Counted from the stretch's first letter, positions 1,315-14,469 are shown. The stretch: 14,469 bases of DNA from an uncultured bacterium (GCA_964534375.1 CAZHPN010000156.1:1-14469), one strand, 5' to 3'. Translations and numbers: made by a program. Notes: generated by a model not told the origin, from the sequence alone.

Positions 1315-2424
1315 TTATTCCCGCTTGAGTTCTTTCGCCAAAATATCGCAAATTTGCCGCGAGGCCGTACCGTCGCCGTACGGGTTTTTCGCCTGGGCCA
1401 TCGCGGCGTACGCGGCCGGATCGTCGAGCAGGCGCGACGCCTCGGCGACGATTTTTTCGGCGGAGGCGCCGACGAGTTTGACCGTGCCGGCGTCGACGCC
1501 CTCGGGGCGCTCCGTGGTTTCGCGCATCACGAGCACGGGTTTGCCGAGCGCGGGGGCTTCTTCCTGAATGCCGCCGGAATCGGTCAGCGCCAAATAGGCG
1601 CGCTTCAGCAAATGGACGAACGGCTCGTAATCGAGCGGCTCGATCAGGCGGACGTTCGGGATGCCCTGCAAGATCTCGCCGACCGGCCGGCGGACGTTCG
1701 GATTCAGGTGCACCGGATACAGCACGGTGTCCGCCGGGTAACGCCGCGCAATCTCGGCCAGGCCGCGGCAAAGGTCGCGGAACGGTTCCCCGAAACTTTC
1801 GCGCCGGTGGGCGGTCACGAGAATCAGACGGCCGGGAATCTCGGCGAGCGCGGGGTCGGCGAACCGATGCGGCCGATTCGCGACGTCGAGCAAGGCGTCG
1901 ATGACGGTGTTGCCCGTGATCCAGATGCGATCCGGGGTGATGCCTTCGCGGAGCAGATTGTCGCGATTTGCCGCGGTCGGCGGGAAGTGCCACGCGGCGA
2001 GCACGGTCGTCAGGCGGCGGTTGATCTCTTCCGGAAACGGGGAGTACGGGTTGCCCGTGCGCAAACCGGCTTCGACGTGCGCTACGGGAATGCGCTGGCA
2101 GAAGGCGGACTCGGCAGCGGCGAAAGTCGTCGTGGTGTCGCCCTGGACGATCACGACATCCGGCTTCGCTTCTCGGAGAACAGCCGGAAGGTGAGCGAAC
2201 ACGCCAGCCAGAATGTCTTCGAGAGTCTGCCCCGCCTTCATCAGGTCGAGGTCGAAATCGGGTCGAACGGCAAACAAATTCAGCACTTGGTCGAGCATTT
2301 GTCGATGCTGCGCGGTGACGCAAACCAGCGGCGCGAAAGTCGGCCGGCGTTTCATCTCCAAAACCAGCGGCGCGAGTTTGATGGCCTCGGGGCGCGTGCC
2401 GAAGACAAACAAGGCGCGAATCAT
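1315..2424 (-). CDS. wecB: UDP-N-acetylglucosamine 2-epimerase (non-hydrolysing)
   Basis: Family motifs FGTRPEAIK, TAQHRQM, VQGDTTT, HVEAGLR, PFPEEINR, TAHRRE, TDSGGIQEEAP, ERPEG and NPYGDG. 369 aa, with a GGAGG SD upstream on the minus strand. Confidence 0.97.
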   Translation of the reverse strand: MIRALFVFGTRPEAIKLAPLVLEMKRRPTFAPLVCVTAQHRQMLDQVLNLFAVRPDFDLDLMKAGQTLEDILAGVFAHLPAVLREAKPDVVIVQGDTTTTFAAAESAFCQRIPVAHVEAGLRTGNPYSPFPEEINRRLTTVLAAWHFPPTAANRDNLLREGITPDRIWITGNTVIDALLDVANRPHRFADPALAEIPGRLILVTAHRRESFGEPFRDLCRGLAEIARRYPADTVLYPVHLNPNVRRPVGEILQGIPNVRLIEPLDYEPFVHLLKRAYLALTDSGGIQEEAPALGKPVLVMRETTERPEGVDAGTVKLVGASAEKIVAEASRLLDDPAAYAAMAQAKNPYGDGTASRQICDILAKELKRE

Positions 2425-2441
2425 CGGTCCTCCGTCAGGTT

Positions 2442-2450
2442 ATTTTACCA
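2442..2450 (-). promoter_or_regulatory. Candidate extended -10 promoter for wecB (TGgTAAAAT)
   Basis: The reverse complement of attttacca is TGGTAAAAT, just upstream of the wecB SD. No clear -35. Confidence 0.4.
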
Positions 2451-2532
2451 AGTCTTCCGGATGCAGAATCATACAACAAAATCACGCCGCGCGGCCAGAA
2501 ATTCTCTGGGAGAGAGGCATGCATTTTTGCGC

Positions 2533-2561
2533 TTTACATCGGCCCCTGTTCTGGCTAACAT
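2533..2561 (+). promoter_or_regulatory. Candidate sigma70 promoter P1 of the EPS operon
   Basis: TTTACA (2533-2538), 17-nt spacer, TAACAT (2556-2561). Confidence 0.5.
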
Positions 2562-2608
2562 CGCACGCAAATTCGGCAAGGTTTATTGCGCGGTAGTTGG
2601 GGCGGACG

Positions 2609-2637
2609 TTGGATTTTTGTTTCAATAACTCTATGAT
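2609..2637 (+). promoter_or_regulatory. Candidate second sigma70 promoter P2
   Basis: TTGGAT (2609-2614), 17-nt spacer, TATGAT (2632-2637). It overlaps the first ATG of the small ORF. Confidence 0.35.
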
Positions 2638-2800
2638 TTTGATGGCTTTTATTGTCGTCGCGGTCGTCACGGCGATTTCGTTGTTGATCCTGGCGCGGGA
2701 CTTGCTCGTGTGGTTCGCGCGGCGATTCCGCAACACGCCGAAGGCGATTCCGCGTTTGCCGGACGATGAACCGCGGGACAAGAAGGAGGGAGATGGATGA
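2633..2800 (+). CDS. Small single-pass membrane protein, first gene of the EPS operon
   Basis: MILMAFIVVAVVTAISLLILARDLLVWFARRFR...: one TM helix, then a basic stretch and a charged tail. The stop overlaps the next start (ATGA at 2797-2800). The start could be 2597 (TTG), 2633 or 2642. Confidence 0.65.
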   Translation: MILMAFIVVAVVTAISLLILARDLLVWFARRFRNTPKAIPRLPDDEPRDKKEGDG

Positions 2801-3657
2801 AAGAATCGGAGAAGAGAAACACTGATCTCCGGGAAATGGCCGTGATCCTCGGGGTCGGAATCATGACGGCCATTGTCTTCGAAAGTCAGTTTGATGTGGT
2901 GCAAGTGCACAAATTAGCCTTCGTGCTCGCCTTGCCCGTCGCGTTTTTTGCCGTGGCCAAAGGTTTTCGTTACGGGGCCGTGGCGGCCATCATTGCCGGC
3001 GCGGTGTACGGATCGAAATTGTTGTACGACCAGATCTTCGTTGGGTCGGGCATCGGCGAGGGGCGGCTGCAAACCGAGTTATTCAACCTCGCATCGATCG
3101 TGGGCACAGGCTTTATCGTCGGCCTCATCACCGAATTTCTCTACCACCGGCAGTTGGAGCCGTTCAAAGAAGAAGCGACGATCGTCGAGACGTTCGTGCC
3201 GGATGAAGAAACCGGTTTGTACAACTTCAAGAGTTTTCGCTGGATGCTGCGCGGCGAGATGAAGCGCGTGAAACGCTACAATTCGCCGATGTCGATGGCG
3301 TTCCTGAAAATTAAGAACCTGGACGAATTCCAAAAACGCTACGATTATCAAAAAGAGGTGATGTTGTTCCGCGAGATCGGCCATTTCTTGCGGAGCATGC
3401 TGCGCGAGGCCGACTACGTCGGCAAATACAGCGACAACGAAATCGGCCTGGTGCTTCCGGAAACGGGACTGGCGGGCTGCAACGTCGTCTGCAACCGGAT
3501 GCGCGAGAAGTTCGGCGAGATGCACGACCGGTTGAACAAGATGTGGGACGAGGCGACGCTCGACTTCGAATTCAGCCAGGCCAATTATCCGAAAGACGCG
3601 AGCAACCTCGAAGAACTGATCGATGTGCTGGATACGCGTTACGAGCCGATAAAATAA
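2797..3657 (+). CDS. Membrane-bound degenerate GGDEF protein; putative c-di-GMP receptor (YdaK/PssE/PelD-like)
   Basis: About four N-terminal hydrophobic helices. DEETGLYN marks the GGDEF-domain start. The I-site READ sits five residues before a degenerate active-site motif (SDNEI), followed by LVLPET. Strong SD (AAGGAGG). Confidence 0.88.
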   Translation: MKESEKRNTDLREMAVILGVGIMTAIVFESQFDVVQVHKLAFVLALPVAFFAVAKGFRYGAVAAIIAGAVYGSKLLYDQIFVGSGIGEGRLQTELFNLASIVGTGFIVGLITEFLYHRQLEPFKEEATIVETFVPDEETGLYNFKSFRWMLRGEMKRVKRYNSPMSMAFLKIKNLDEFQKRYDYQKEVMLFREIGHFLRSMLREADYVGKYSDNEIGLVLPETGLAGCNVVCNRMREKFGEMHDRLNKMWDEATLDFEFSQANYPKDASNLEELIDVLDTRYEPIK

Positions 3658-3685
3658 TGCGATGAGGAAGGGTTAGGGTTTCGGT

Positions 3686-5725
3686 TTGTTCCGACGGCTT
3701 GTCTTACCTTTGGCCGGGTTCTTCCTGGCGGTGCTGATTGCCCTGTGGCTGCTGCCGTTAAAGGGGCTCCTGCAGGGCGGACAGACCGCGCTGATCATCT
3801 ACGACGAGCCCAATCCGAAGCACGCCGACCTCGATCGCCTGGACGCGCTGATGCTGCGGCAACTGCTCGGCCATTTCGACCTCGCCGCGATCGACATGGT
3901 CAGCACCGGCGATTACAAGGCCAACCAGGTCAAGAAATACGACGTGGTGTTCTACGTCGGCACGAAGGAAGATCTCGCGCCCCCGACCTACCTGATCGAC
4001 GACTTGTTTTTCCGCAAGGGCACGCTGGTCTGGATCGGCGCCAACCTCCAAAGCATGGACAAACGCCACAAACTTAGTTCCTACGGCCTGCAGTTGGTCG
4101 ACGAAGCCGACACGCATGCGACCAATCGCGTCGAATACAAGGGCAAGTCGCTCTGGAAACTGGACACGCGAACGTACCAGGTCGACGTCGTCGGCCAACG
4201 CGACAAGGTGTTTGCCTGGGCGAAAGGCGTGCCTGGCGCCCCGTTGCCGTCCGGCCAGGCGCTGGTGGCCGGCCCCGAGGTGACCTACGCCGGCATGGAG
4301 AGGAAACCCGAAAACGCCGCCGCCGAAAGCTCGCCGCTGCCGCCGCTCGACGAGAAATTGATGCTGGGCGCGCCGCCGCCGCCGGCGCCGGCCGCGACCC
4401 CCGAACCCGCGCCGCGGGTCGCCGCGGAGACGCGGCTCCCGTGGATCGTGCAGGGCGGGCGTTTTTGGTACGTGGCCTCCGATCCGTTCTCCTATGCCGT
4501 CGAAGGCGGCGCGTATCTCGCCTTTTGCGATGTGCTGCACGACATCATGAAATCCGGCGTCAAAGAGGCGAAGCACCCCGGGTTCGTGCGTCTCGAAGAC
4601 GTGCACGCGTTGCGCAACAGCGCGGACCTGATCGCCGCGGCGGATTATCTCCATTCGCGCCATATCCCGTTCGGCTTCACGTTGATTCCGGTCTACGTGA
4701 ACCCGGCGACCAAACAAACGGTTTACCTGAGCAATTCGCCTGAATTCATCAAGACGATTCACGGGCTGGTGGCGCGGGGCGGCACGCCGATCGTGCACGG
4801 GTACACGCATCAAAGCACCGGCGAGACGGCCGTCGACTACGAATTTTGGGATGTGCACGGCGACCGCCCGCTCGCCAGCAACACGGAGTTCGCCGCCGAA
4901 CGCGTGGTGCGGGCGCTGTCCGAGTGCTTCCTGGCCGACGTCTATCCGGTGGCCTGGACGACGCCGCATTACGCCGCGGGCCAGATCGATTTCGAGGCGA
5001 TTCGCGGCTACTTCACGACGGTCATGGAGCGCCGGCAGCCGATCGACCGTTTGGGAACGGATCAGTTCTTCCCCTACATCATCAAGCGCGACATGCACCA
5101 GCAAATCATCCTGCCGGAAAACCTCGGCTATGTGCAGCCGGCGGTCGGCCGCGATCCAAAAGCCATCTTGCAAGATGCGGACAACAGCCTCGTCGTTCGC
5201 GACGGCTGGGGCAGTTTCTTTTTCCACACCTTTCTCGATTTGAAGTTGCTCCAGGAAATCGTCGACGGCATGGACAAACTCGGCTACACGTGGGTGAGCC
5301 TGACCGAACTCAACAACAAGGCCCGCACCGACGACACCGTGGCGCTGACCGGCTCCGGCGAAGTGAAGTTGACCCTGAAAAGCCAGTACCTCGACACGTT
5401 CACCCTCGACGAGGGCGGCGAAAAACAATCCGAGACCTTTTCGTTCCGGCCCGTGACCGGCAACGTCGATCTGTTCGCCTCGGCGCACAAAGGCGAGGTC
5501 CAGGTGTACCAGGGCGTGTATGCGGCGCCGCCGTTGACGTTCGCCAACCTGCGCAAATTCCGGCCGACGATCTCGGGCGTCACGAGTCCCGTGGCGATTT
5601 TCCTGTTGTTCGTCGGCCTGGCGATTCTATTCGTGTTCCTGACGATCTGGATTTTCCTGTTGACGCGCAAAGCCGGCAATGAGTTCCGCAACGTGTTGCG
5701 CAGCCGCGGGAGAGGGCAAGGCTAG
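3686..5725 (+). CDS. DUF2334-family polysaccharide deacetylase (YdaL/PssB-like), membrane anchored
   Basis: N-terminal signal or anchor. NodB-like metal and catalytic motifs VRLEDVH, VHGYTHQ and TPHYAA, plus PENLGY and SFFFH. C-terminal TM at 5591-5665. The TTG start is uncertain. Confidence 0.85.
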   Translation: MFRRLVLPLAGFFLAVLIALWLLPLKGLLQGGQTALIIYDEPNPKHADLDRLDALMLRQLLGHFDLAAIDMVSTGDYKANQVKKYDVVFYVGTKEDLAPPTYLIDDLFFRKGTLVWIGANLQSMDKRHKLSSYGLQLVDEADTHATNRVEYKGKSLWKLDTRTYQVDVVGQRDKVFAWAKGVPGAPLPSGQALVAGPEVTYAGMERKPENAAAESSPLPPLDEKLMLGAPPPPAPAATPEPAPRVAAETRLPWIVQGGRFWYVASDPFSYAVEGGAYLAFCDVLHDIMKSGVKEAKHPGFVRLEDVHALRNSADLIAAADYLHSRHIPFGFTLIPVYVNPATKQTVYLSNSPEFIKTIHGLVARGGTPIVHGYTHQSTGETAVDYEFWDVHGDRPLASNTEFAAERVVRALSECFLADVYPVAWTTPHYAAGQIDFEAIRGYFTTVMERRQPIDRLGTDQFFPYIIKRDMHQQIILPENLGYVQPAVGRDPKAILQDADNSLVVRDGWGSFFFHTFLDLKLLQEIVDGMDKLGYTWVSLTELNNKARTDDTVALTGSGEVKLTLKSQYLDTFTLDEGGEKQSETFSFRPVTGNVDLFASAHKGEVQVYQGVYAAPPLTFANLRKFRPTISGVTSPVAIFLLFVGLAILFVFLTIWIFLLTRKAGNEFRNVLRSRGRGQG

Positions 5726-7056
5726 TGCCGTACACCAGCGTCTATATCGATCTGCTCTTCCTCGCCTCGGCGATCGGCATTTGGCTGTTCCTGTTGTTCA
5801 ACGTCATCCTGACGTTCTTCGCCTTCCTGCATAGCCTGTCCAGCGAAAAGGAACGGCAGCGGCTGTTCCAAGAGCCCTTCCCGTTCCCGTTTGTCTCGAT
5901 TTTGATTCCCGCGCACAACGAGGGCGTCGTGATTCGCCGCACCATCGAATCGATGCTGGCCTTCAACTACCCGCGCGAACGTCTCGAGGTGATCATCGTC
6001 AACGACGGCTCCACGGACGACACGGCGGAAATTGTCGAGAGCTACGCCGAGCGGTACCGCAACGTCAAATTGGTGAACATCCCGCAGGGCGAGGGCGGCC
6101 GCGGCAAGAGCCGCGCGCTGAACGTCGGCCTCGAGCACGCAATGGGCGACGTCATCAGCGTTTTCGACGCCGACAACCGCCCGGAGCCGAACTCGCTGCG
6201 CTACCTGGTCGCCAACCTGGTCAACGACCCCAAACTGGGCGCCGTGCTGGGCAAGGTGCGCACGATCAACGCCAAGCAAAACCTGCTGACCCGCTTCATC
6301 AACATCGAATTCATTTCGTTCCAATGGATCATCCAGGGCGGCCGCTACAAGATCTTCAACCTCGCGACGCTGCCCGGCACCAACTACGTCATTTGGCGGA
6401 AGGTGCTGGAAAAGGCCGGCCGCTTCGACGAGGAAGCGATTGCCGAAGACGCAGAACTCTCCATTCGCCTCTACGAAATGGGCTACCGCATCAAGTTCAT
6501 CCCGTATGCTGTCACGTGGGAGCAGGAGCCGCAGCAGTTGAAGGTGTTCCTGCGCCAACGCACGCGCTGGGCGCAAGGGATGCACTACATCATTCGCAAA
6601 TTCATGCGCATTGCGTTCCAGATGAAGAACCGGCGCATCATGGTCGACCTGTTCTACATGTTCAGCCTTTACTACATGTTTTTCGTGGCGCTCATCCTCT
6701 CGGACGCCATCGCCGTCCTGTCGCTCGTGGGCGTCGTCAAACTGGGGCTGGTCGGACCGTTCAGCTTCATCTGGTTCCTGGCGGGGATGCTGTTTTTCAT
6801 GGAACTGCTGATCGCGGTCAGCATCGAGGAGGAAGAGAGCTTCACCAACATTGTGCTGGCGGGGCTGATGTATGTCACGTATTGCCAATTGTGGATCGTC
6901 GTCATCTTCCGCGCCGCCTACATGCAGTTCATGCAGAATCGGCGCGGCCAGCGAACGGTGTGGGAAAAAACGATTCGGTATCGGTTACGGCGTAAGACCG
7001 AGGAATCGGGCGTCAGCCGCGATCGCATGCGCGAAATGCGCGACGAGGATCAATAG
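5725..7056 (+). CDS. Processive family-2 glycosyltransferase (polysaccharide synthase; YdaM/PssC-like)
   Basis: N-terminal TM, then IPAHNE, VNDGSTD, GKSRALN, FDAD (DxD), AED (TED-equivalent) and QRTRW (QxxRW). About three C-terminal TMs and a WEKTIR tail. No PilZ domain. The GTG start overlaps the upstream TAG. Confidence 0.93.
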   Translation: MPYTSVYIDLLFLASAIGIWLFLLFNVILTFFAFLHSLSSEKERQRLFQEPFPFPFVSILIPAHNEGVVIRRTIESMLAFNYPRERLEVIIVNDGSTDDTAEIVESYAERYRNVKLVNIPQGEGGRGKSRALNVGLEHAMGDVISVFDADNRPEPNSLRYLVANLVNDPKLGAVLGKVRTINAKQNLLTRFINIEFISFQWIIQGGRYKIFNLATLPGTNYVIWRKVLEKAGRFDEEAIAEDAELSIRLYEMGYRIKFIPYAVTWEQEPQQLKVFLRQRTRWAQGMHYIIRKFMRIAFQMKNRRIMVDLFYMFSLYYMFFVALILSDAIAVLSLVGVVKLGLVGPFSFIWFLAGMLFFMELLIAVSIEEEESFTNIVLAGLMYVTYCQLWIVVIFRAAYMQFMQNRRGQRTVWEKTIRYRLRRKTEESGVSRDRMREMRDEDQ

Positions 7057-8175
7057 ATGCGCGGCGGACGGGCGATCGTCGGGTTGGTGGTCGTAGCCGT
7101 CGTGGGGGCGAGCAGCTTGGTGGCGTATCCAGCGACCGTGACGCCGGACAAGGCGGAAAAGCTGGCGAAGAAATTCGTCGAGGAAAAGATGCGCCTGCCC
7201 AGCGGCGGCATCCTCACCAACGGCAAGGTGCGCCGCCTGTTGTTGTTCCCCACCTTCGACCCGGCCGATCTGCAGGCCTCGGGCGTCCTTTCCGAAACCG
7301 CCGGCTTGGCGATGCAATACGCCGTGGCGGCCGACGACCGCGCGCTGTTCGACGGCCAACTGGAATTCGCGCGCCACAAGCTCACCGGCCCCTACGGGCT
7401 CTTTTACTGGAAAATCAGCCACGACGCGGAGATGGCGGCCAGTTCCTCCGCCTGCATCGACGACCTGCGCATCATCGGCGCGGCGTTGGCGGCGGCCGAC
7501 AAATGGCGGCAGCCAACGTACGCCGCGTTCGCGGTGGATATCGCCGACAACGTGCGCAAGTACACGGTCGTCGACCACGTCCTGCGCGATTTCTTGAACT
7601 GGCGCGACTATGGCGAACCGGTCAAGGCCGACACGCTGCAGCTCTCGTATATCGAGACCGCTGTCTTGCGGGCGCTCGCCAAACGCGATGCGGATTGGCA
7701 GCCGATTCTGCAGCGCAGCGGCGACGTCCTGCTCAAAGGCCGTCGCCCGAGCGGCTTGTTCTTCGAACAATACGATTTCGCCGCCGGCCAATACCAGGGC
7801 GAACGCCAGAACATGATCAACCAGCTTTACTGCGCGCTGTTCGCCGCGGAAATCGAGAAGGACGAACATCCGTTCGCCGGCTGGCTGCGCCGCCGCTTCG
7901 CCGCCGATGGCGTGTTGTACGCGCAGTACGACAGCCAGAGCGGCGAGCCGACCGGCATGTTCGAATCGACCAGCGTCTACGCGTTGGCCTCGCGGTACGC
8001 CTATCGCATCGGCGATGCGACGATGGGCGACGCGCTGATCAAGAAGTTGCTCGAGTTTCAAAACCTCAACCCGCTGTCGCCGATGTACGGCAGTTTCAGC
8101 GACGATGAGGTGTACAGTTTCGACAATCTGGAGGCGCTGATTGCGTTGCGTTCGTACAACGAGCGGCGGCGGTAG
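7057..8175 (+). CDS. GH8-like glycoside hydrolase (YdaJ/PssZ-like), exported
   Basis: Hydrophobic N-terminus. LSETAGLAMQYA is the GH8 SE motif with the catalytic Glu. FYWK, SACIDDLRII and YSFDNL are also present. GAGG SD at 7045-7048. Confidence 0.82.
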   Translation: MRGGRAIVGLVVVAVVGASSLVAYPATVTPDKAEKLAKKFVEEKMRLPSGGILTNGKVRRLLLFPTFDPADLQASGVLSETAGLAMQYAVAADDRALFDGQLEFARHKLTGPYGLFYWKISHDAEMAASSSACIDDLRIIGAALAAADKWRQPTYAAFAVDIADNVRKYTVVDHVLRDFLNWRDYGEPVKADTLQLSYIETAVLRALAKRDADWQPILQRSGDVLLKGRRPSGLFFEQYDFAAGQYQGERQNMINQLYCALFAAEIEKDEHPFAGWLRRRFAADGVLYAQYDSQSGEPTGMFESTSVYALASRYAYRIGDATMGDALIKKLLEFQNLNPLSPMYGSFSDDEVYSFDNLEALIALRSYNERRR

Positions 8176-8246
8176 CGCTTTCTTGAATTGAGGCCGCGCC
8201 GCTTCGGGCGAATCCGGCGTCGGCTGTCGCGTTTGGGGAGTGGGCG

Positions 8247-11200
8247 ATGAAAAAACGAAAGTTCCTGTGGGCCGCACTGCTGGGATGCCTGGCGGTTGGC
8301 TGGGCCGGAGCCGCCTGGGCGGGCCCCTATGAAGAGGGAATGTCCCTCTTCAATTCGGGCAATTACCAGACGGCGGCGCAGCGATTCCGTACGGCGGTCG
8401 AAGAAAATCCCGCCAACGTCGAGGCGATGAAACGTCTCGGCGATTGCTATTTCAACATCTACTCCGAGGCCCATCCCGACTACGGCAAGATCGCCATCGA
8501 AGCCTACTCGAAAGCGCTGGAAATCGACCCGAAAGACGGCGTCACCCGTCTGCACCTCGCCCAAATTTATTCGTGGACCAACGACACCGACGACGCGATC
8601 AAGCAGCTGCAAACCCTTTTGGCCAACGAACCGGAAAACACGTTGGCGATGGTCGAACTGGCCGAAATCTATTCGTGGAAACCGGACACCTACAAACAGG
8701 CGCTCGAGCAGTGCGAGGCCGTCGTCAAAAAAGAGCCGAAAAACAAGCGGGCGCATATGATCGCCGGCCGCGTTTATTCGTGGCTCGGCGAGCATCCGCA
8801 ATCGCTGCAACATTACTCGGCCGCGCTGGATGTCGACCCCAACGACAACAAACTCCGCTTGGAATACGCCAACGAACTGTCGATGGCCGGCAAGTACAAC
8901 GAGGCCATCGAGCAATTCAATTATCTGACCAGCCGGCACGAAACGGCCGACCAAAGCCTCGTCGGCCTGGCGCAAGCATATTACAACAGCCGGCGCTACG
9001 CCGACGCGATGGCCGTCGTCGAGATTGTCCTGAAACGCGAGCCGAAGAACGGCTACGCCTGGCGGCTCAAAGGGCTCATCCTGCACGACCAGCGCCGCTA
9101 TGTGGAGGCCGCCGACGCCTTCAAGAAAGCGCTCGAAATCAATCCGGACGACATCGAGGCCAAGCTTTTGCTGGCCGAAACATACGCCGTAACGGAGGCC
9201 ACGTACCCCGAAGCCGTCGCCGCGTATCGCGACGTGCTGCGCAGCCAGCCCGACAACGCCAAAGTGCTGACCGATCTGGCGCGGATCTACGGCGAATCGA
9301 ACAATTTCCCGTTGGCGATCGAGCAGTACCGGCTGATCCTGGCGAAAGACCCCGACAACTTCGAAACGCGCACCGCGCTGGTGCGGACGCTGATCAAGGC
9401 CAAAAGCTACGAGGAGGCGGTCCGCGAGGCCCGCGCGTTGATGCAGAAGTCGCCCGACAAGATCGAGGCCAAGGTGCTGTTCGGCGAAACCCTGCTCGAA
9501 GCGGGGCGGTTCGAAGACGCCTTGGCGGTCTATGAAGACGCGGTGAAGGCGAAGCCCCAATATTTGCCGGCGGCCGTCGGCCTGGGCTGGGCGCACCACG
9601 CGTACAGCATGGACCGCATCGCGCAGGGCCAGAAACTTCAGGAGACCATCAAGAAACAAACGTTCGGCATCATCGACCGGATTCATTATCTCTGGGTCGA
9701 AGCGAGCGAAACCTGGCACTTCAACCGCGCCGTCACCGTTTTGACCGAGGCGGCGACGAAATTTCCCGATGCGACCGAGCCGCACCTGAAGCTCGCGGAA
9801 GTCTATGCGCAGCACAAGGCGTACAAGAGTTCCATCGAGAGCTACGAAAAAGCGCTGCAAATCGACCCGCGGAGCGTGCCGGCGTACCTCGGCATGGCCT
9901 GGGTCTACGCCCAGATGGGCAACAGCCAGAAATCGATCGACGCGATCCGCCGCGCAGCCCAGATCGAGCCGACGAACGCCGACGTGTTGGGCAGTCTGGG
10001 CGACGCCTACGCCTACCAACAGGACGTCTCGCAGGCGATCGAAGCGCTCGAAAAGGCGGTGACGATGAAGTTCACCGACCTGGAACTTCACCGACGACTG
10101 GCCAATTTGTATGCACAAAACCGCAAGTATTACGACAAGGCGATTCGCGAATGCCAGTTCATCCTGGAGCACGACGCCGCCGATGACGACACGCGGCGGC
10201 TCCTGGCGCGCGTGTATTCATGGAAGGAGCAGTACGACGATTCGGTCAAGGTTTACGAGGAACTGGTCGCCCGGCGCCCGCAGGACCAGGATCTCTATCT
10301 CGAAATGATGAAGACGAAGATGTACTCCGGCAAATCCGACGAGGTGATCGCCGAGTTGCGGGTACTGTTGACCAAAGAGCCCGACAACGTCAACGCGCGG
10401 TTGGCGCTGGGCAACGCCTACGAGGCGCACAGCGATCTCGAACTAGCGGACAAGGAGTTCACGACGGTCCTCAAGACCGATCCGAAGAACGGCAACGCGC
10501 ACCTCGGCTTGGCGACGGTGTACCGGGAGAAGGAGCAGTTCGACCACGCGGTCGTCGAATATCGCGAGGTCCTGGCCACGAACCCCGACTCGGCGGAGGC
10601 GTACTACGGCCTGGGCGTGATCGACCGCCGCGCCGGCCACTACGAGCGCGCCATTGCGATGCAAAAAAAGGTGCTCGAACTCGATTCGAGCAACCTCAAC
10701 GCGTTCGCCGAGTTGTCGTACAACCACTACCTGTTGGCGCGGCGCTACGTGGCGACCACGGGTCAGTACCAGCGCGCCTGGTGGCTGCTGAGCAACAATT
10801 GGGGCGACATCTACGGCGTGTGGGGGGAATATCCGGCGAGCGTCGAGCAGATGCGCGCCATTTTGCTGGACGACCCCGGCAATTGCGACCTGCGTTATCT
10901 CCTGGCGCAAGAGTTGCAAAATCACAATCGCAACAAAGAAGCGGTCGCCGAATTCCGCAAACTGCTGTCGTATTGCCCGAACCACATCGGGGCCCGCGTC
11001 GCGCTGGCGGACATCTTCTCCTACAGCCCATCCACGTACGCCTGGGCCGTGACGGAGACGCTCGAAATCGTCAAACGCGAGCCCGACAACTACGATGCGC
11101 ATCTGCGGCTCGCCCGACTCTATTCCTGGTCGTTGCAGTACACGGCCTCGATCAACCAATATCTGTGGTGCCTCAAGATTCACCCGGACGCGGTCGACGT

Positions 11201-13553
11201 ACGGCAGGAATTGGCGCAAACCCTCTCGTACTCCAAGATGTACAAAGAATCGCTTACGCAATACGAGATCGTCCTCGCCCAGGATCCGTCGCGCAACGAC
11301 GTGCGCATCGAGATGGCCAAGGTCTTCTCCTACGAAAACCGCAACGATGAAGCGATTCGCCAGTATGAGGTCATTCTCCAGCGCGACCCGAACAACTTCG
11401 AGGCCAGCTTCGCGCTCGCCAACCTCTACAGTTGGGACCGCCGTTACTATCACCGCGCGATCGATCTGTATCGCAAACTGTTCCTCAAGTATCCGAAGAA
11501 CGTCGAATCCCGGATGGAATACGGGCGGCTGCTGTACGAGCGCGGCGAGTTCAAGGACGCGGAAGAGGCCTACCGCAACGCGGTCGAACTCGAGCCCGAC
11601 AACGCCGACGCCCACCTGATGCTCGGCCGCATCTATGTGGCCAAACACCAATCGGACAAAGCCGTCGACGAATTCAACCAGGTGTTGCAGGTTCGACCGA
11701 ACGATGTCGACGCGCACTATTATCTGACTTCGATCTACTCCAGCGACGAGAAGACCTGGCCGCAAGCGATCGACCACGGCTTGGCCGTGCTCGCCATCGA
11801 GCCCAACAACGACGAAGTCCGCGAGTTGGTCGCGCGCGTCTACGCCTCGATGGACGACCACGCCAAGGCGGCGAAACATTACGCCGTGCTTGTGGAGAAC
11901 AATCCGAACGACGACGAACTCCGCTATCAATACGCGCTCAGCCTTTCCTACGCCGAAGACTACAGCGAGGCGGTCGAGCAATTCCAGAAATTGGCGCTAA
12001 AGAAGCCGGAAGACGTGCCGATCCGCCTGGAAATGGGCTTGGCGATGTCCGCCCTTGGCCAATACACCGACGCCATCGTCAACCTCGAATTCGCCGTCGG
12101 CCGCGACCCGTGGAACGTGCGGGCGCGCAAAGGCTTGGCCAACTCGTACAAGAACGCCAGCAAGGTCGACGCGGCGATCAACCAGTACAAACGCATTCTC
12201 GTGATCGACCCGAACGACAAGGAAGCGCGCGAGTTTCTCAAACTTTACGGAATCGAATACAACGACGTGGCGTTTCTCGATCAATGGTTCAACTCTCCGG
12301 GCAAGACGATGCTCGCCGGAGGCCCGCCGACGGGGCCGCCCGGCGTGGACGACGCGGAGGTGCGATACCGTTTGCGCCTCGCGGATGAGTTGGCGCGCCA
12401 CTCGCGCTACAAGCAGGCGCGCTACGTCTACGAGGATCTTGTCCGAAAGGATCCGGCCAATCTCTACTACCGCCTGGCCCTGGCGAACATCTACATTCAG
12501 TCGGGGATGTACGCCAGCGCCAGGCTGCAGTTTCAGGTGGTGCTGCGGCTCGATCCGGACAACGCCGAGGCCAAAACGGGCCTCGCGGAAGTCGCCTGGC
12601 TCTCCGCGCCGCGCCTCGCGACAACGGCCGAGTTTGACGACATTCATCGGTTCTCCCGCACAAACACCATGCTGGCCTTGGGCAGCCGGTTCACCTATCT
12701 CTTCGGCGATGGCGGCGAAGCGTTTGGTGAGTTGGTTGCGGCCCGGCACGCCGAGCAGCACGAAGTGCACATCGATCGGCTCTCCCCGCGCGTCGGCGCG
12801 GCGTACGATGTGTTCGGCGAAGTGACCCTCCGCGGCGAATACGCGCCCAACATCTACTCGCGCCTGCCGACGACGCACAACTGGTTGGGGTCGGTCACGA
12901 CCGACATCTACGATTACGTCGGCCTCGAAGGTTATTACGACCGCACCGACGTGCGCCAGACGATTCTGGCGATGGAGCAGCACGTCGCCTCCACGGACCT
13001 GGGCGGCGTGCTGCGCGTCTCGCCGCTGGCGGAACTCAATCTGCGCGGCGAATATCGGCACAGTTGGCTTGGCGGCGGCTCGCTCGTCCGGCCGAATCAA
13101 TCCGACCTGGCCAGCGGCGCCGCCGCGTACACGTTTTTCAAGGGTCCGTATTTTACACCCGGCTACGTGTACACTTGGCAGATCTTCGACGATGAAACGC
13201 CGAACGTCCTCGGCGTTTACTTCGCGCCGCGCCGCTTCCAGAGCCACGGCTTGACGTTCGACGTACGCGACCAGGTCGGCCAGAGTCTCGTGTGGGACGT
13301 CGGCGTGTCGCCCGCCTACAACATTCTCGGCAGCGATATTCAAAAGACGCAAACGGAATGGACGTTGAGCGCCTACGGCGGCGTCGATTGGCTGATCACG
13401 CTCAACCACCGGCTCGCCGCGCAGGTCAGCGGCGGCGCCGACGTCAGCACCAACACGTTTTACGAATACTCGCTGGTGCTCACCTACACGTACATCTTCG
13501 GGAAGTTCAAAGGCGAGTGGCTGCAGCAGCGCGCGACGGAAACGGAACCGTAA
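8247..13553 (+). CDS. Giant TPR protein with C-terminal outer-membrane beta-barrel; putative polysaccharide export protein (PgaA/PelB/BcsC-like architecture)
   Basis: Sec signal ending AWA. Roughly 35-40 repeats of about 34 aa with the TPR pattern (A...Y..AL..DP.N..A...LA..Y). From about 12606 the sequence switches to amphipathic beta-strands with a YFAP motif and a final strand YSLVLTYTYIF. Confidence 0.88.
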   Translation: MKKRKFLWAALLGCLAVGWAGAAWAGPYEEGMSLFNSGNYQTAAQRFRTAVEENPANVEAMKRLGDCYFNIYSEAHPDYGKIAIEAYSKALEIDPKDGVTRLHLAQIYSWTNDTDDAIKQLQTLLANEPENTLAMVELAEIYSWKPDTYKQALEQCEAVVKKEPKNKRAHMIAGRVYSWLGEHPQSLQHYSAALDVDPNDNKLRLEYANELSMAGKYNEAIEQFNYLTSRHETADQSLVGLAQAYYNSRRYADAMAVVEIVLKREPKNGYAWRLKGLILHDQRRYVEAADAFKKALEINPDDIEAKLLLAETYAVTEATYPEAVAAYRDVLRSQPDNAKVLTDLARIYGESNNFPLAIEQYRLILAKDPDNFETRTALVRTLIKAKSYEEAVREARALMQKSPDKIEAKVLFGETLLEAGRFEDALAVYEDAVKAKPQYLPAAVGLGWAHHAYSMDRIAQGQKLQETIKKQTFGIIDRIHYLWVEASETWHFNRAVTVLTEAATKFPDATEPHLKLAEVYAQHKAYKSSIESYEKALQIDPRSVPAYLGMAWVYAQMGNSQKSIDAIRRAAQIEPTNADVLGSLGDAYAYQQDVSQAIEALEKAVTMKFTDLELHRRLANLYAQNRKYYDKAIRECQFILEHDAADDDTRRLLARVYSWKEQYDDSVKVYEELVARRPQDQDLYLEMMKTKMYSGKSDEVIAELRVLLTKEPDNVNARLALGNAYEAHSDLELADKEFTTVLKTDPKNGNAHLGLATVYREKEQFDHAVVEYREVLATNPDSAEAYYGLGVIDRRAGHYERAIAMQKKVLELDSSNLNAFAELSYNHYLLARRYVATTGQYQRAWWLLSNNWGDIYGVWGEYPASVEQMRAILLDDPGNCDLRYLLAQELQNHNRNKEAVAEFRKLLSYCPNHIGARVALADIFSYSPSTYAWAVTETLEIVKREPDNYDAHLRLARLYSWSLQYTASINQYLWCLKIHPDAVDVRQELAQTLSYSKMYKESLTQYEIVLAQDPSRNDVRIEMAKVFSYENRNDEAIRQYEVILQRDPNNFEASFALANLYSWDRRYYHRAIDLYRKLFLKYPKNVESRMEYGRLLYERGEFKDAEEAYRNAVELEPDNADAHLMLGRIYVAKHQSDKAVDEFNQVLQVRPNDVDAHYYLTSIYSSDEKTWPQAIDHGLAVLAIEPNNDEVRELVARVYASMDDHAKAAKHYAVLVENNPNDDELRYQYALSLSYAEDYSEAVEQFQKLALKKPEDVPIRLEMGLAMSALGQYTDAIVNLEFAVGRDPWNVRARKGLANSYKNASKVDAAINQYKRILVIDPNDKEAREFLKLYGIEYNDVAFLDQWFNSPGKTMLAGGPPTGPPGVDDAEVRYRLRLADELARHSRYKQARYVYEDLVRKDPANLYYRLALANIYIQSGMYASARLQFQVVLRLDPDNAEAKTGLAEVAWLSAPRLATTAEFDDIHRFSRTNTMLALGSRFTYLFGDGGEAFGELVAARHAEQHEVHIDRLSPRVGAAYDVFGEVTLRGEYAPNIYSRLPTTHNWLGSVTTDIYDYVGLEGYYDRTDVRQTILAMEQHVASTDLGGVLRVSPLAELNLRGEYRHSWLGGGSLVRPNQSDLASGAAAYTFFKGPYFTPGYVYTWQIFDDETPNVLGVYFAPRRFQSHGLTFDVRDQVGQSLVWDVGVSPAYNILGSDIQKTQTEWTLSAYGGVDWLITLNHRLAAQVSGGADVSTNTFYEYSLVLTYTYIFGKFKGEWLQQRATETEP

Positions 13554-13786: not shown

Positions 13787-13816
13787 TTGCCCCGATCGTC
13801 CAGACCGTGCTATTGT
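13787..13816 (+). promoter_or_regulatory. Candidate sigma70 promoter with extended -10 for the lipoprotein gene
   Basis: TTGCCC (13787-13792), 18-nt spacer, TGc-TATTGT (13808-13816). Confidence 0.5.
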
Positions 13817-13867
13817 TGCGAAGTCGGGCGCGCTTTCATGTGGGGATTTGCGGAGGCTCCCTCTTAC

Positions 13868-14469
13868 ATGAAACGCGCATCCTGGTTAATCCTCTTTGGG
13901 CTATCGCTCGTCTTTCTCCTGGCGAATCTTGTCGGCTGCGACGCGCCGGGCGTCGCCGCCTCGGCGGCCGCGGCGAACGGCGACCGCGTCGAGGCGGTGG
14001 ACGTCGTCGTTGTGCCGCCCGCGGCGGCGGACGGCATCTCCTTGGCGGCCGACATGTCGGCCGATTCTTTCGCCGCCGTGTCGACTCACACCCGCAGATG
14101 CGACGCGGAGACGTGCCCCGACGGTTGCTGCAACGCCGATGGCCAATGTGAAACCTCGGCCAACAAAAGCTGCGGCCGTCACGGCGTCGAGTGCGTCGCT
14201 TGCGTCTTCGGGACGCAGTGCATCTGGGGTCAGTGCGAGAAGTTCTGCAACTCCGACGATTGCAAGACCGGCTGCTGCAACGGCACGACCTGCGAAAAGG
14301 GCGACACGGTCGCTTTGTGCGGCGCGGCCGGCAACGTTTGTGAGGCGTGCGCCGCCGGGCAGGCGTGCGTGAACGGCGCCTGCGTCAGCGCCGGCGATGA
14401 CGACGACAACGACGACGACAACGACAACGACGACAACGACGACAACGACGACAACGACGACAACGACAA
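13868..14469 (+). CDS. Cys-rich repeat lipoprotein with Asp/Asn low-complexity tract (partial, runs off the window)
   Basis: Translated by hand: MKRASWLILFGLSLVFLLANLVG-C (lipobox LVGC), an Ala-rich linker, two 10-Cys repeats (14099-14383), then DDDDNDDDNDN... GGAGG at 13852-13856. Absent from the ORF track because no stop is reached. Confidence 0.85.
   Translation, partial: MKRASWLILFGLSLVFLLANLVGCDAPGVAASAAAANGDRVEAVDVVVVPPAAADGISLAADMSADSFAAVSTHTRRCDAETCPDGCCNADGQCETSANKSCGRHGVECVACVFGTQCIWGQCEKFCNSDDCKTGCCNGTTCEKGDTVALCGAAGNVCEACAAGQACVNGACVSAGDDDDNDDDNDNDDNDDNDDNDDND
14396..14469 (+). repeat. Coding tandem repeat (GACGACAAC)n encoding Asp/Asn
   Basis: Continuous gac/aac codons, in frame with the 13868 ATG, up to the window end. 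Confidence 0.95.

Follow-up and report, generated by a model that had tools for sequence, protein, structure and literature searches.

Which secretion machine, and which polymer, is encoded by a locus whose genes recall at once the Pss system of Listeria, the Yda system of Bacillus subtilis, and the cellulose-type exporters of cells with an outer membrane? The locus occupies positions 1315 to 13553 of the stretch of DNA analysed here, 14,469 nucleotides long and called the window, which is a complete contig (C156, CAZHPN010000156.1) of a metagenome-assembled genome of an uncultured bacterium (GCA_964534375.1; 6.3 Mb, 381 contigs, 94% complete). This genome contains LpxC and two genes of the Omp85 family, which marks the host as a diderm with lipopolysaccharide (LPS). 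Near-identical DNA is present in several wetland and peat metagenomes.

Synthase-dependent exopolysaccharides (EPS) such as cellulose, poly-N-acetylglucosamine (PNAG), Pel, and alginate form the main frame in which biofilm matrices are understood. Members based on N-acetylmannosamine (ManNAc) are recent, were met as phage receptors in Escherichia coli and Acinetobacter baumannii, and their polymers are chemically undefined. We find that the operon described here is very probably an EPS secretion system of the Pss/Pgr family. On the whole we favour a synthase-dependent ManNAc system gated by cyclic di-GMP (c-di-GMP), with a possibly partly deacetylated product and adapted to a cell with an outer membrane. 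A preliminary description of this DNA had proposed a diderm machine secreting a partly deacetylated poly-ManNAc; a ManNAc-based, c-di-GMP-gated, and synthase-dependent system is well supported by our results, and the deacetylation and the chemistry of the polymer are inferred.

The Operon

One minus-strand gene and five plus-strand genes were located, at coordinates exactly as first given in the preliminary description, whose picture of six genes in a coupled run with a divergent wecB was borne out by the open reading frames (ORFs), by the family matches, and by the contacts between neighbouring genes. The features are as follows (aa, amino acids).

1315..2424, minus strand: wecB, non-hydrolysing UDP-N-acetylglucosamine (UDP-GlcNAc) 2-epimerase (TIGR00236, PF02350), divergent from the operon
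2425..2796, no strand: divergent intergenic region of 372 bp, presumed promoter region for wecB and the operon
2797..3657, plus strand: membrane-anchored degenerate GGDEF protein, 286 aa, predicted c-di-GMP receptor, YdaK/PssE-like (PF00990)
3686..5725, plus strand: DUF2334 protein, 679 aa, predicted polysaccharide de-N-acetylase (PF10096)
5725..7056, plus strand: processive synthase of glycosyltransferase family 2 (GT2), 443 aa, PssC/PgrC type by PF13641 and by identity to PssC and PgrC
7057..8175, plus strand: membrane-anchored periplasmic protein, 372 aa, like PssZ and glycoside hydrolase family GH126 (matches to PDB 3ren and 6r2m)
8247..13553, plus strand: outer-membrane TPR exporter, 1768 aa (TPR families, modelled C-terminal barrel)
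12612..13496, plus strand: 16-strand beta-barrel domain of the exporter, residues about 1456-1750 (AlphaFold2 model, Foldseek)

The stop codon of the DUF2334 gene overlaps the GTG start of the GT2 gene by 1 base, and the ATG of the hydrolase gene directly abuts the GT2 stop; the remaining gaps are 29 bp between the GGDEF and DUF2334 genes and 71 bp between the hydrolase and TPR-barrel genes. Considering that the identical gene order was found in each of the six related loci of sufficient length, the arrangement is not due to chance, and the five plus-strand genes constitute a real, coherent, and conserved operon that is tightly coupled.

The Synthase and Its Predicted c-di-GMP Receptor

The synthase matched PF13641 at 3.6e-34, and the motifs DAD, AED, and QRTRW were read straight from its sequence. 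It aligned over its full length with PssC of Listeria monocytogenes (44% identity and 66% positives over 417 residues, E 6e-131) and with PgrC of A. baumannii (43% identity, E 7e-121), the identity being 36-38% with the synthases of Bacillus thuringiensis and Priestia and 27% with PgaC of E. coli. No meaningful alignment was obtained with NfrB of E. coli or with the Nfr-like glycosyltransferase of a Comamonadaceae plasmid, and the CelA and BcsA models scored the protein far under their cut-offs. A maximum likelihood tree of 44 rows was calculated, with class B relatives (defined below) thinned to every second row and with IcaA and YdaM not included; the Listeria, Enterococcus, B. thuringiensis, and Priestia sequences used for comparison came from records filed as plasmids. 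The window protein grouped with its class A relatives (also defined below), and next with the Bacillus/Priestia, A. baumannii, class B, and PssC/Enterococcus rows, while PgaC, BcsA, and a Lactiplantibacillus GT2 remained outside on long branches. Judged by its sequence, the synthase is a PssC-like member of the Pss/Pgr family and groups neither with PgaC nor with BcsA, so that the tree did not give the grouping (PgaC/IcaA or BcsA) which the preliminary description had named as refuting its proposal.

The GGDEF protein matched PF00990 at 8.3e-14 over residues 136-281 and begins with membrane helices. It reads L-R-E-A-D-Y-V-G-K-Y-S-D-N-E-I, with an RxxD (READ) I-site placed 5 residues before the SDNEI that replaces GG[DE]EF; the RxxD is conserved in the five class A homologues that could be aligned in frame, a sixth (L010), picked in a wrong frame, being left out of the count. 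Its identity to Listeria PssE is 24% (E 2e-9), with equal length and layout. PssE is reported to bind c-di-GMP with a dissociation constant of 0.79 uM and to be essential for Pss synthesis (PMC4125290), and in YdaK of B. subtilis, which carries SDERI and RxxD, changes in RxxD are described as abolishing EPS production (PMC5422440). By sequence the window protein is a degenerate I-site protein like YdaK and PssE, and by analogy with both it would bind c-di-GMP at its RxxD. Modelled as a complex, the synthase and the GGDEF protein scored 0.05 (mark 0.32), a value that is uninformative either way.

The Exporter

The exporter starts with a signal-peptide-like sequence, read from the protein, and TPR families extend over residues about 30-1450, TPR_19 alone matching at 1.1e-133 in 19 stretches. 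The last ~320 residues matched no Pfam family, even at E 10. An AlphaFold2 model of residues 1290-1768, built from nine sequences (mean predicted local distance difference test, pLDDT, 79), presented TPR helices followed by 16 strands. The five top Foldseek matches of this barrel were BcsC (including two E. coli cryo-electron microscopy entries), PelBC, and PgaA, with values of 4.8e-19 for BcsC 9b8a, 7.1e-16 for PelBC 9h80, 4.8e-15 for BcsC 6tzk, and 2.1e-12 for PgaA 4y25; generic porins appeared at 1e-10 or weaker. In the ESM Atlas, the clusters nearest to the barrel were PgaA_barrel and BCSC_C. Taking into account its modelled fold, the protein belongs to the class of EPS porins formed by a TPR region and a 16-strand barrel of BcsC/PelB/PgaA type, in agreement with the exporter that had been proposed from the sequence.

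The curated models gave the exporter 197 bits for PgaA (cut-off 367) and 121 bits for BcsC (cut-off 858). PrsT (429, cut-off 312) and MamA (385, cut-off 200) were rejected as families for this protein, their scores being sums over many TPR stretches. Full-length relatives (~1760 aa) were only 8 among proteins of similar length.

The DUF2334 Protein

PF10096 matched residues 300-528 of this protein at 5.6e-41 (141 bits), and no solved homologue was found by sequence. The AlphaFold2 model (pLDDT 83) opens at the N terminus with a membrane helix, followed by an alpha/beta domain and, after a disordered Pro/Ala linker, by the DUF2334 domain, a beta-sandwich, and a long C-terminal membrane helix. 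The top Foldseek matches were PelA (9cgy), CE4 polysaccharide deacetylases, Agd3, and the deacetylase of NDST1. Five motifs, R-[LI]-E-D, H-G-x-T-H-Q, P-H-Y, P-E-x-L-G, and F-x-H, proved conserved when the window protein was aligned with its relatives, with the long proteins of class B, and with the DUF2334 proteins associated with Nfr in Ralstonia and Comamonadaceae; Listeria PssB has none of the five, and its Pfam score of 23 bits is under the cut-off. The E-D, the H-x3-H, and the late His resemble motifs 1, 2, and 5 of CE4 enzymes. Considering the CE4/PelA-like fold and the conserved motifs of metal-binding and catalytic type, the protein is predicted to be a periplasmic de-N-acetylase that is probably active. 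That the polymer is indeed deacetylated we hold to be plausible, at slightly less than an even chance. No description of a DUF2334 enzyme was found in the literature searched, and the papers that mention DUF2334 do not deal with an EPS system, as judged by title and abstract.

Genomes of the class to which the window belongs (G304-G318) also carry extra DUF2334 paralogues of ~550 aa with 26-37% identity, some of them in tandem pairs or triplets (for instance, G317:C2:305573-308579).

The Hydrolase

The preliminary description called the fourth gene of the run "GH8-like." The protein does have a weak match to PF01270 (Glyco_hydro_8; 5.2e-9, 36 bits, cut-off 24), although it is closer to GH126/PssZ than to BcsZ, whose model gave 32 bits (cut-off 299). 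Against the PDB it matched 3ren at 1.8e-39 and 6r2m at 8.5e-24; we take the former to be the founder of GH126 and the latter to be PssZ. By these sequence matches the protein is of GH126/PssZ type. At the position of E72 of PssZ, the window protein and its 6 class A homologues all retain the Glu, the reference in this alignment being a Listeria protein that carries E72 and D232 as published. An X-ray structure of PssZ is on record, in a report that mentions GH126 geometry (PMC13492145).

Relatives and Gene Neighbourhoods

A pattern scan over one genome per species, with a profile of 12 DUF2334 sequences, yielded 359 stretches encoding DUF2334 relatives; the best 80 loci were kept and searched with the window proteins by tblastn. 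Among these 80 the synthase lay within 10 kb in 73 and wecB in 40. Class A comprises seven loci (L004-L010), all of them from metagenome-assembled genomes and labelled Deltaproteobacteria where named, and consists of genes for GGDEF, a 680-aa DUF2334 protein, GT2, hydrolase, and TPR-barrel; the full order was present in the six loci mentioned above, the seventh being too short. Such a neighbourhood in diderms is what the preliminary description had proposed to search for.

The other 73 loci (class B, L011-L083) come from Bacteroidota, Ignavibacteriota, Acidobacteriota, Desulfobacterota, Elusimicrobiota, Omnitrophota, and others, and hold a compact module of wecB, a ~1300-aa DUF2334 protein with GHL6/GHL10-like hydrolase parts, and a PssC-like GT2 (for instance, L021:7948-14698 and L035:8681-15245). 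The GT2 is present in 66/73 and wecB in 37/73, directly upstream on the same strand in 30/73; where the flanks are long, wecB is found in 25/43. A GGDEF gene and a TPR-porin neighbour were not found in the four class B loci inspected closely. The synthase family, with DUF2334 and wecB, is thus widespread in diderm phyla, and the label of a "Gram-positive core" used in the preliminary description is misleading.

Full-length orthologues of the DUF2334 protein occur in 6/7 genomes of the family of the window and in 7/7 of a second family in the same class, and in 0/26 of the other genomes sampled. In a sample of Bacillota, 81 of 301 genomes had DUF2334 matches; eight regions were inspected, one of which combined a DUF2334 match to the window protein with wecB and none of which had a synthase of the window type. 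The B. subtilis control genome matched both the DUF2334 and the BcsB profiles.

DUF2334 was also found beside a different type of synthase. On the megaplasmid of Ralstonia solanacearum OE1-1 (533296-541590, L087) there are an NfrB-like glycosyltransferase with MshEN, an NfrA_C porin, wecB, a small hypothetical gene, and DUF2334, and a Comamonadaceae plasmid (265252-274198, L084) carries wecB, an NfrB-like glycosyltransferase, a small hypothetical gene, DUF2334, an NfrA_C TPR porin, and DUF4434. The DUF2334 proteins of these two Nfr clusters have about 28-30% identity to that of the window. A DUF2334 gene of this kind was also seen in 136 Ralstonia records of the plasmid collection.

wecB and the Sugar

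The wecB product matched TIGR00236 at 3.1e-145 (484 bits, cut-off 210) and PF02350 at 1.7e-117, and no other Epimerase_2 match turned up in the genome, which is 94% complete. Three separate arrangements, namely, class A, class B, and the PGR locus of A. baumannii, connect the gene with this synthase family, and this recurrent link supports ManNAc as the sugar, which we regard as probable. Furthermore, wecB and DUF2334 co-occur with two unrelated synthase families, the PssC-like and the Nfr-type; taken with the single wecB in the genome, this co-occurrence is the strongest of the indirect arguments that the polymer is made of ManNAc and that DUF2334 acts on it.

Proposed Mechanism

In the mechanism that we propose, WecB, as assigned by family, would convert UDP-GlcNAc into UDP-ManNAc for this pathway. 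Considering the identity to PssC and the link with wecB, the inner-membrane GT2 would polymerise ManNAc, probably in beta-1,4 linkage as PssC, and pass the chain through the membrane, being switched on by c-di-GMP bound at the RxxD I-site of the GGDEF protein, by analogy with PssE and YdaK. Some of the N-acetyl groups may be stripped in the periplasm by the DUF2334 enzyme, which is tethered to the membrane and has a CE4/PelA-like fold and motifs, and the GH126/PssZ-like protein may trim or release chains. The polymer would finally be guided along the very long TPR scaffold and leave through the 16-strand porin of BcsC/PelB/PgaA type, a function suggested by the fold.

Alternative Explanations

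Several observations weigh against the interpretation that we favour. Searches for a BcsB-like subunit (PF03170), which Pss and PGR both have, detected none in the window or elsewhere in the 94%-complete genome, while the controls, E. coli and B. subtilis, did match; it may be that the DUF2334 protein stands in for this subunit. The DUF2334 protein had no BLASTP similarity to Listeria PssB, and an assay of any DUF2334 enzyme was not found in print. In the hydrolase, Asn takes the place of D232 of PssZ, both in the window protein and in each of the 6 class A homologues, whereas the proteins of Listeria, Priestia, and Enterococcus carry D or E at this position. The hydrolytic activity is uncertain for that reason, and the catalytic base may lie elsewhere or chain binding may be the main role. 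The identity of the synthase to PssC is only 44%, so that substrate or linkage could differ, and its best NCBIfam match is PgaC_IcaA, though far under the cut-off. Moreover, apart from the window itself, wecB adjoins the operon only in the three closest relatives (L004-L006), and it is not within 10 kb in L007-L010; the genomes of L007-L010 and of L004 each hold exactly one wecB, and in the one of the L007-L010 genomes where it shares a contig with the cluster it lies ~26 kb away, and a single-copy wecB may also serve other glycans. Every chemical statement on the polymer is an inference.

One alternative is a product that stays fully N-acetylated. The DUF2334 protein would then be a scaffold or chain guide that replaces the BcsB-like subunit absent from the genome search, a role in keeping with the membrane helix that follows its beta-sandwich, or else an esterase for, e.g., O-acetyl groups. 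The backbone of Listeria Pss is beta-1,4-ManNAc, reported as ManNAc and not as mannosamine (ManN) (PMC13492145), PssB is a degenerate DUF2334 protein, and pseudoenzymes with the CE4 fold exist, such as BA3943, which is among the fold matches of DUF2334. However, the strict conservation of E-D, H-x3-H, and F-x-H across distant diderm relatives argues for catalysis, and the top fold matches are active deacetylases; we consider a fully acetylated product unlikely, but deserving attention. The same wecB data would allow a GlcNAc polymer, PNAG-like or chitin-like and deacetylated by DUF2334, in a cell that uses WecB for LPS or some other glycan of the surface: 4/7 class A loci have no adjacent wecB, as a single copy the gene could have other clients, and PgaC_IcaA is the best model for the synthase (1e-54). 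That model, however, reached 186 bits for a cut-off of 422, the identity to PgaC is well below that to PssC, the hydrolase resembles PssZ and not PgaB or dispersin, and wecB is tied to the synthase family in class A, class B, and PGR, which makes a GlcNAc polymer improbable. It could also be argued that the operon proper is a four-gene module of the inner membrane and periplasm and that the TPR-barrel gene stands downstream by chance and exports something else, as class B (73/80 loci) has the wecB-DUF2334-GT2 module with no detectable TPR-porin neighbour. Against this, the gene follows the hydrolase gene by 71 bp on the same strand, holds that position throughout the long class A loci, and encodes a barrel that best matches dedicated EPS porins, so we give the idea very little credit. 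The gated ManNAc system, with a possibly partly deacetylated product, is the interpretation that we retain.

Taking the neighbourhoods together, a wider proposal may be put forward, although we regard it as doubtful. DUF2334 would be a new carbohydrate-esterase family, the dedicated de-N-acetylase of ManNAc EPS, and partly deacetylated poly-ManNAc a major unrecognised matrix polymer of environmental diderms. At least three kinds of machine, with wecB and DUF2334 in common, would produce it: the Nfr type, the compact class B type with wecB, a DUF2334/GH fusion, and GT2, and the c-di-GMP-gated type with a giant BcsC-like exporter. If the chemistry proposed for the operon itself were confirmed, a widespread cationic ManNAc/ManN polymer would join the known matrix polysaccharides and DUF2334 would gain a function.

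Flanking Sequences and Expression

The ATG at 2797 is preceded by a strong Shine-Dalgarno sequence, and the guanine-cytosine content drops to 0.54-0.57 around the intergenic region 2425-2796. A sigma-70-like site is present at 2533-2561, such sites being no commoner than in shuffled sequence; likewise, the promoter and terminator scans gave no excess of sites over shuffled sequence. No c-di-GMP riboswitch or other Rfam family was detected in the whole window, the sole match being COG2908 RNA at E 0.19, far under the gathering score.

Contigs of three metatranscriptome libraries, from three studies, agreed perfectly with short pieces of each of the five operon genes; one piece crosses the DUF2334/GT2 junction (5679-5939) and another the start of the GGDEF gene (2666-2858). 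wecB (1315-2424) and parts of the operon had no cover in the three RNA libraries, but with contigs missing cover carries no meaning. These matches are a weak hint that the operon is expressed. Contigs of one library also matched 734-1017, upstream of wecB, without differences, where there is no ORF with a family match or relatives; this signal may be an unannotated transcript or DNA carry-over, and because a piece matches this gene-less segment, the matches to the operon may come from DNA carry-over too.

The flanking ORFs 313-612 and 777-1313 were not accepted as genes, as they had no family match and no relatives in the 80 loci. At the other end, a partial ORF (13787-14467, plus strand) runs off the contig; it has a lipoprotein-like signal (LVGC), several Cys-rich repeats of CxxGCC type, and a long Asp/Asn run, and it had no Pfam or NCBIfam match. 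The Asp/Asn-coding repeat (14008-14469) had very high summed contig depth in all four runs compared, and it probably explains why the assembly stopped at the contig end.

Comparison with Known Systems

Among the nearest systems is Listeria Pss, with which the operon shares a PssC-type synthase, a PssE-type GGDEF I-site protein, a PssZ-type hydrolase with its catalytic Glu, and a DUF2334-annotated gene next to the synthase. The preliminary description had matched its gene set with yda/pss, and this holds for the synthase, the GGDEF protein, and the hydrolase; it does not hold for PssA and PssD/YdaN, of which no counterpart was found, and is uncertain for the DUF2334 protein, which matches its Pfam family strongly and is dissimilar by BLASTP to PssB, itself under the Pfam cut-off. 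The PssD that is missing is the BcsB-like subunit, and PssB is motif-less, while the window protein keeps the motifs. In addition, Listeria lacks an outer membrane and a porin, the pss operon region compared does not include wecB, and D232 of PssZ is Asn in the window hydrolase.

The ydaJKLMN operon of B. subtilis, compared by its published description for YdaJ to YdaN, likewise has a glycoside hydrolase, a degenerate GGDEF protein with RxxD (SDERI there, SDNEI here), YdaL, and YdaM, but the window system has no equivalent of YdaN. Its EPS production is described as c-di-GMP-dependent and its polymer as unknown (PMC5422440).

That no characterised synthase system of diderms makes ManNAc, as the preliminary description held, is contradicted by E. 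coli Nfr and A. baumannii PGR, both of them precedents of a genetic kind (PMC8669469, PMC8669472, PMC12507263). The PGR system, reported in 2025, comprises PgrA (diguanylate-cyclase-like, without GGDEF), the synthase PgrC, a BcsB homologue, PgrE, WecB (PgrF), and the putative porin PgrG (PMC12507263). According to the same report, phage StAb3 depends on the locus (pgrA-G), the glycan is proposed to contain ManNAc, and wecB is genetically required. Both PGR and the window operon belong to diderm hosts, have synthases that are 43% identical, hold wecB in the locus, and encode a degenerate GGDEF-like protein as well as a putative porin of the outer membrane. On the other hand, DUF2334 and GH126 are absent from PGR, which encodes a BcsB homologue and a DUF4434/PgaB-C-like protein, and the window lacks DUF4434; no sequence similarity was found between PgrA and the window GGDEF protein or between PgrG and the window barrel, and PgrG has 390 aa, compared with the 1768 aa of the window exporter.

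NfrB of E. coli, described in 2021, is a c-di-GMP-activated GT2 that makes with NfrA a secreted EPS needing WecB, for which a ManNAc polymer is proposed, and wecB is said there to be often linked to nfrB in other species (PMC8669469); another source calls the polymer "as-yet-uncharacterized" (PMC8669472). NfrBA-YbcH thus resembles the predicted window system in its c-di-GMP-activated GT2, its outer-membrane protein with TPR and barrel, its need for WecB, and its proposed polymer. The differences are that the synthases are unrelated beyond the GT2 fold, that the Nfr sensor is a fused MshEN and the Nfr porin an NfrA_C, and that the helper is DUF4434 and not GH126; the window proteins matched neither MshEN nor NfrA_C, while the E. 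coli and Ralstonia proteins matched both. Beyond PMC12507263, no further work on the Nfr and PGR systems was found in the literature.

With Pga, Bcs, and Pel, the operon has in common the general plan of a synthase, a periplasmic modifying enzyme, a hydrolase, and a TPR-porin, the barrel having the BcsC/PelB/PgaA fold and the DUF2334 protein that of PelA; Pel also uses an I-site GGDEF receptor, PelD (cited in PMC4125290). Nevertheless, all the curated models (PgaC, PgaA, BcsC, BcsZ) remained under their cut-offs, only the barrel fold resembles BcsC, and family scans of the window detected no PilZ, BcsB, PgaB, PgaD, or GT4 PelF, so that the exclusion of Pel, Bcs, and Pga in the preliminary description stands.

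No publication on the present architecture was found in the literature on Pss/Yda proteins, on their Gram-negative counterparts, or on synthase-dependent ManNAc systems. With the precedents of Listeria, Acinetobacter, and E. coli, the operon is an outer-membrane version of a Pss/Pgr-type machine and not a categorically new kind. The Listeria-type synthase family has in it a complete version for cells with an outer membrane, with its own predicted c-di-GMP receptor, a deacetylase that is probably active as judged by model and motifs, and an exporter of the cellulose type.

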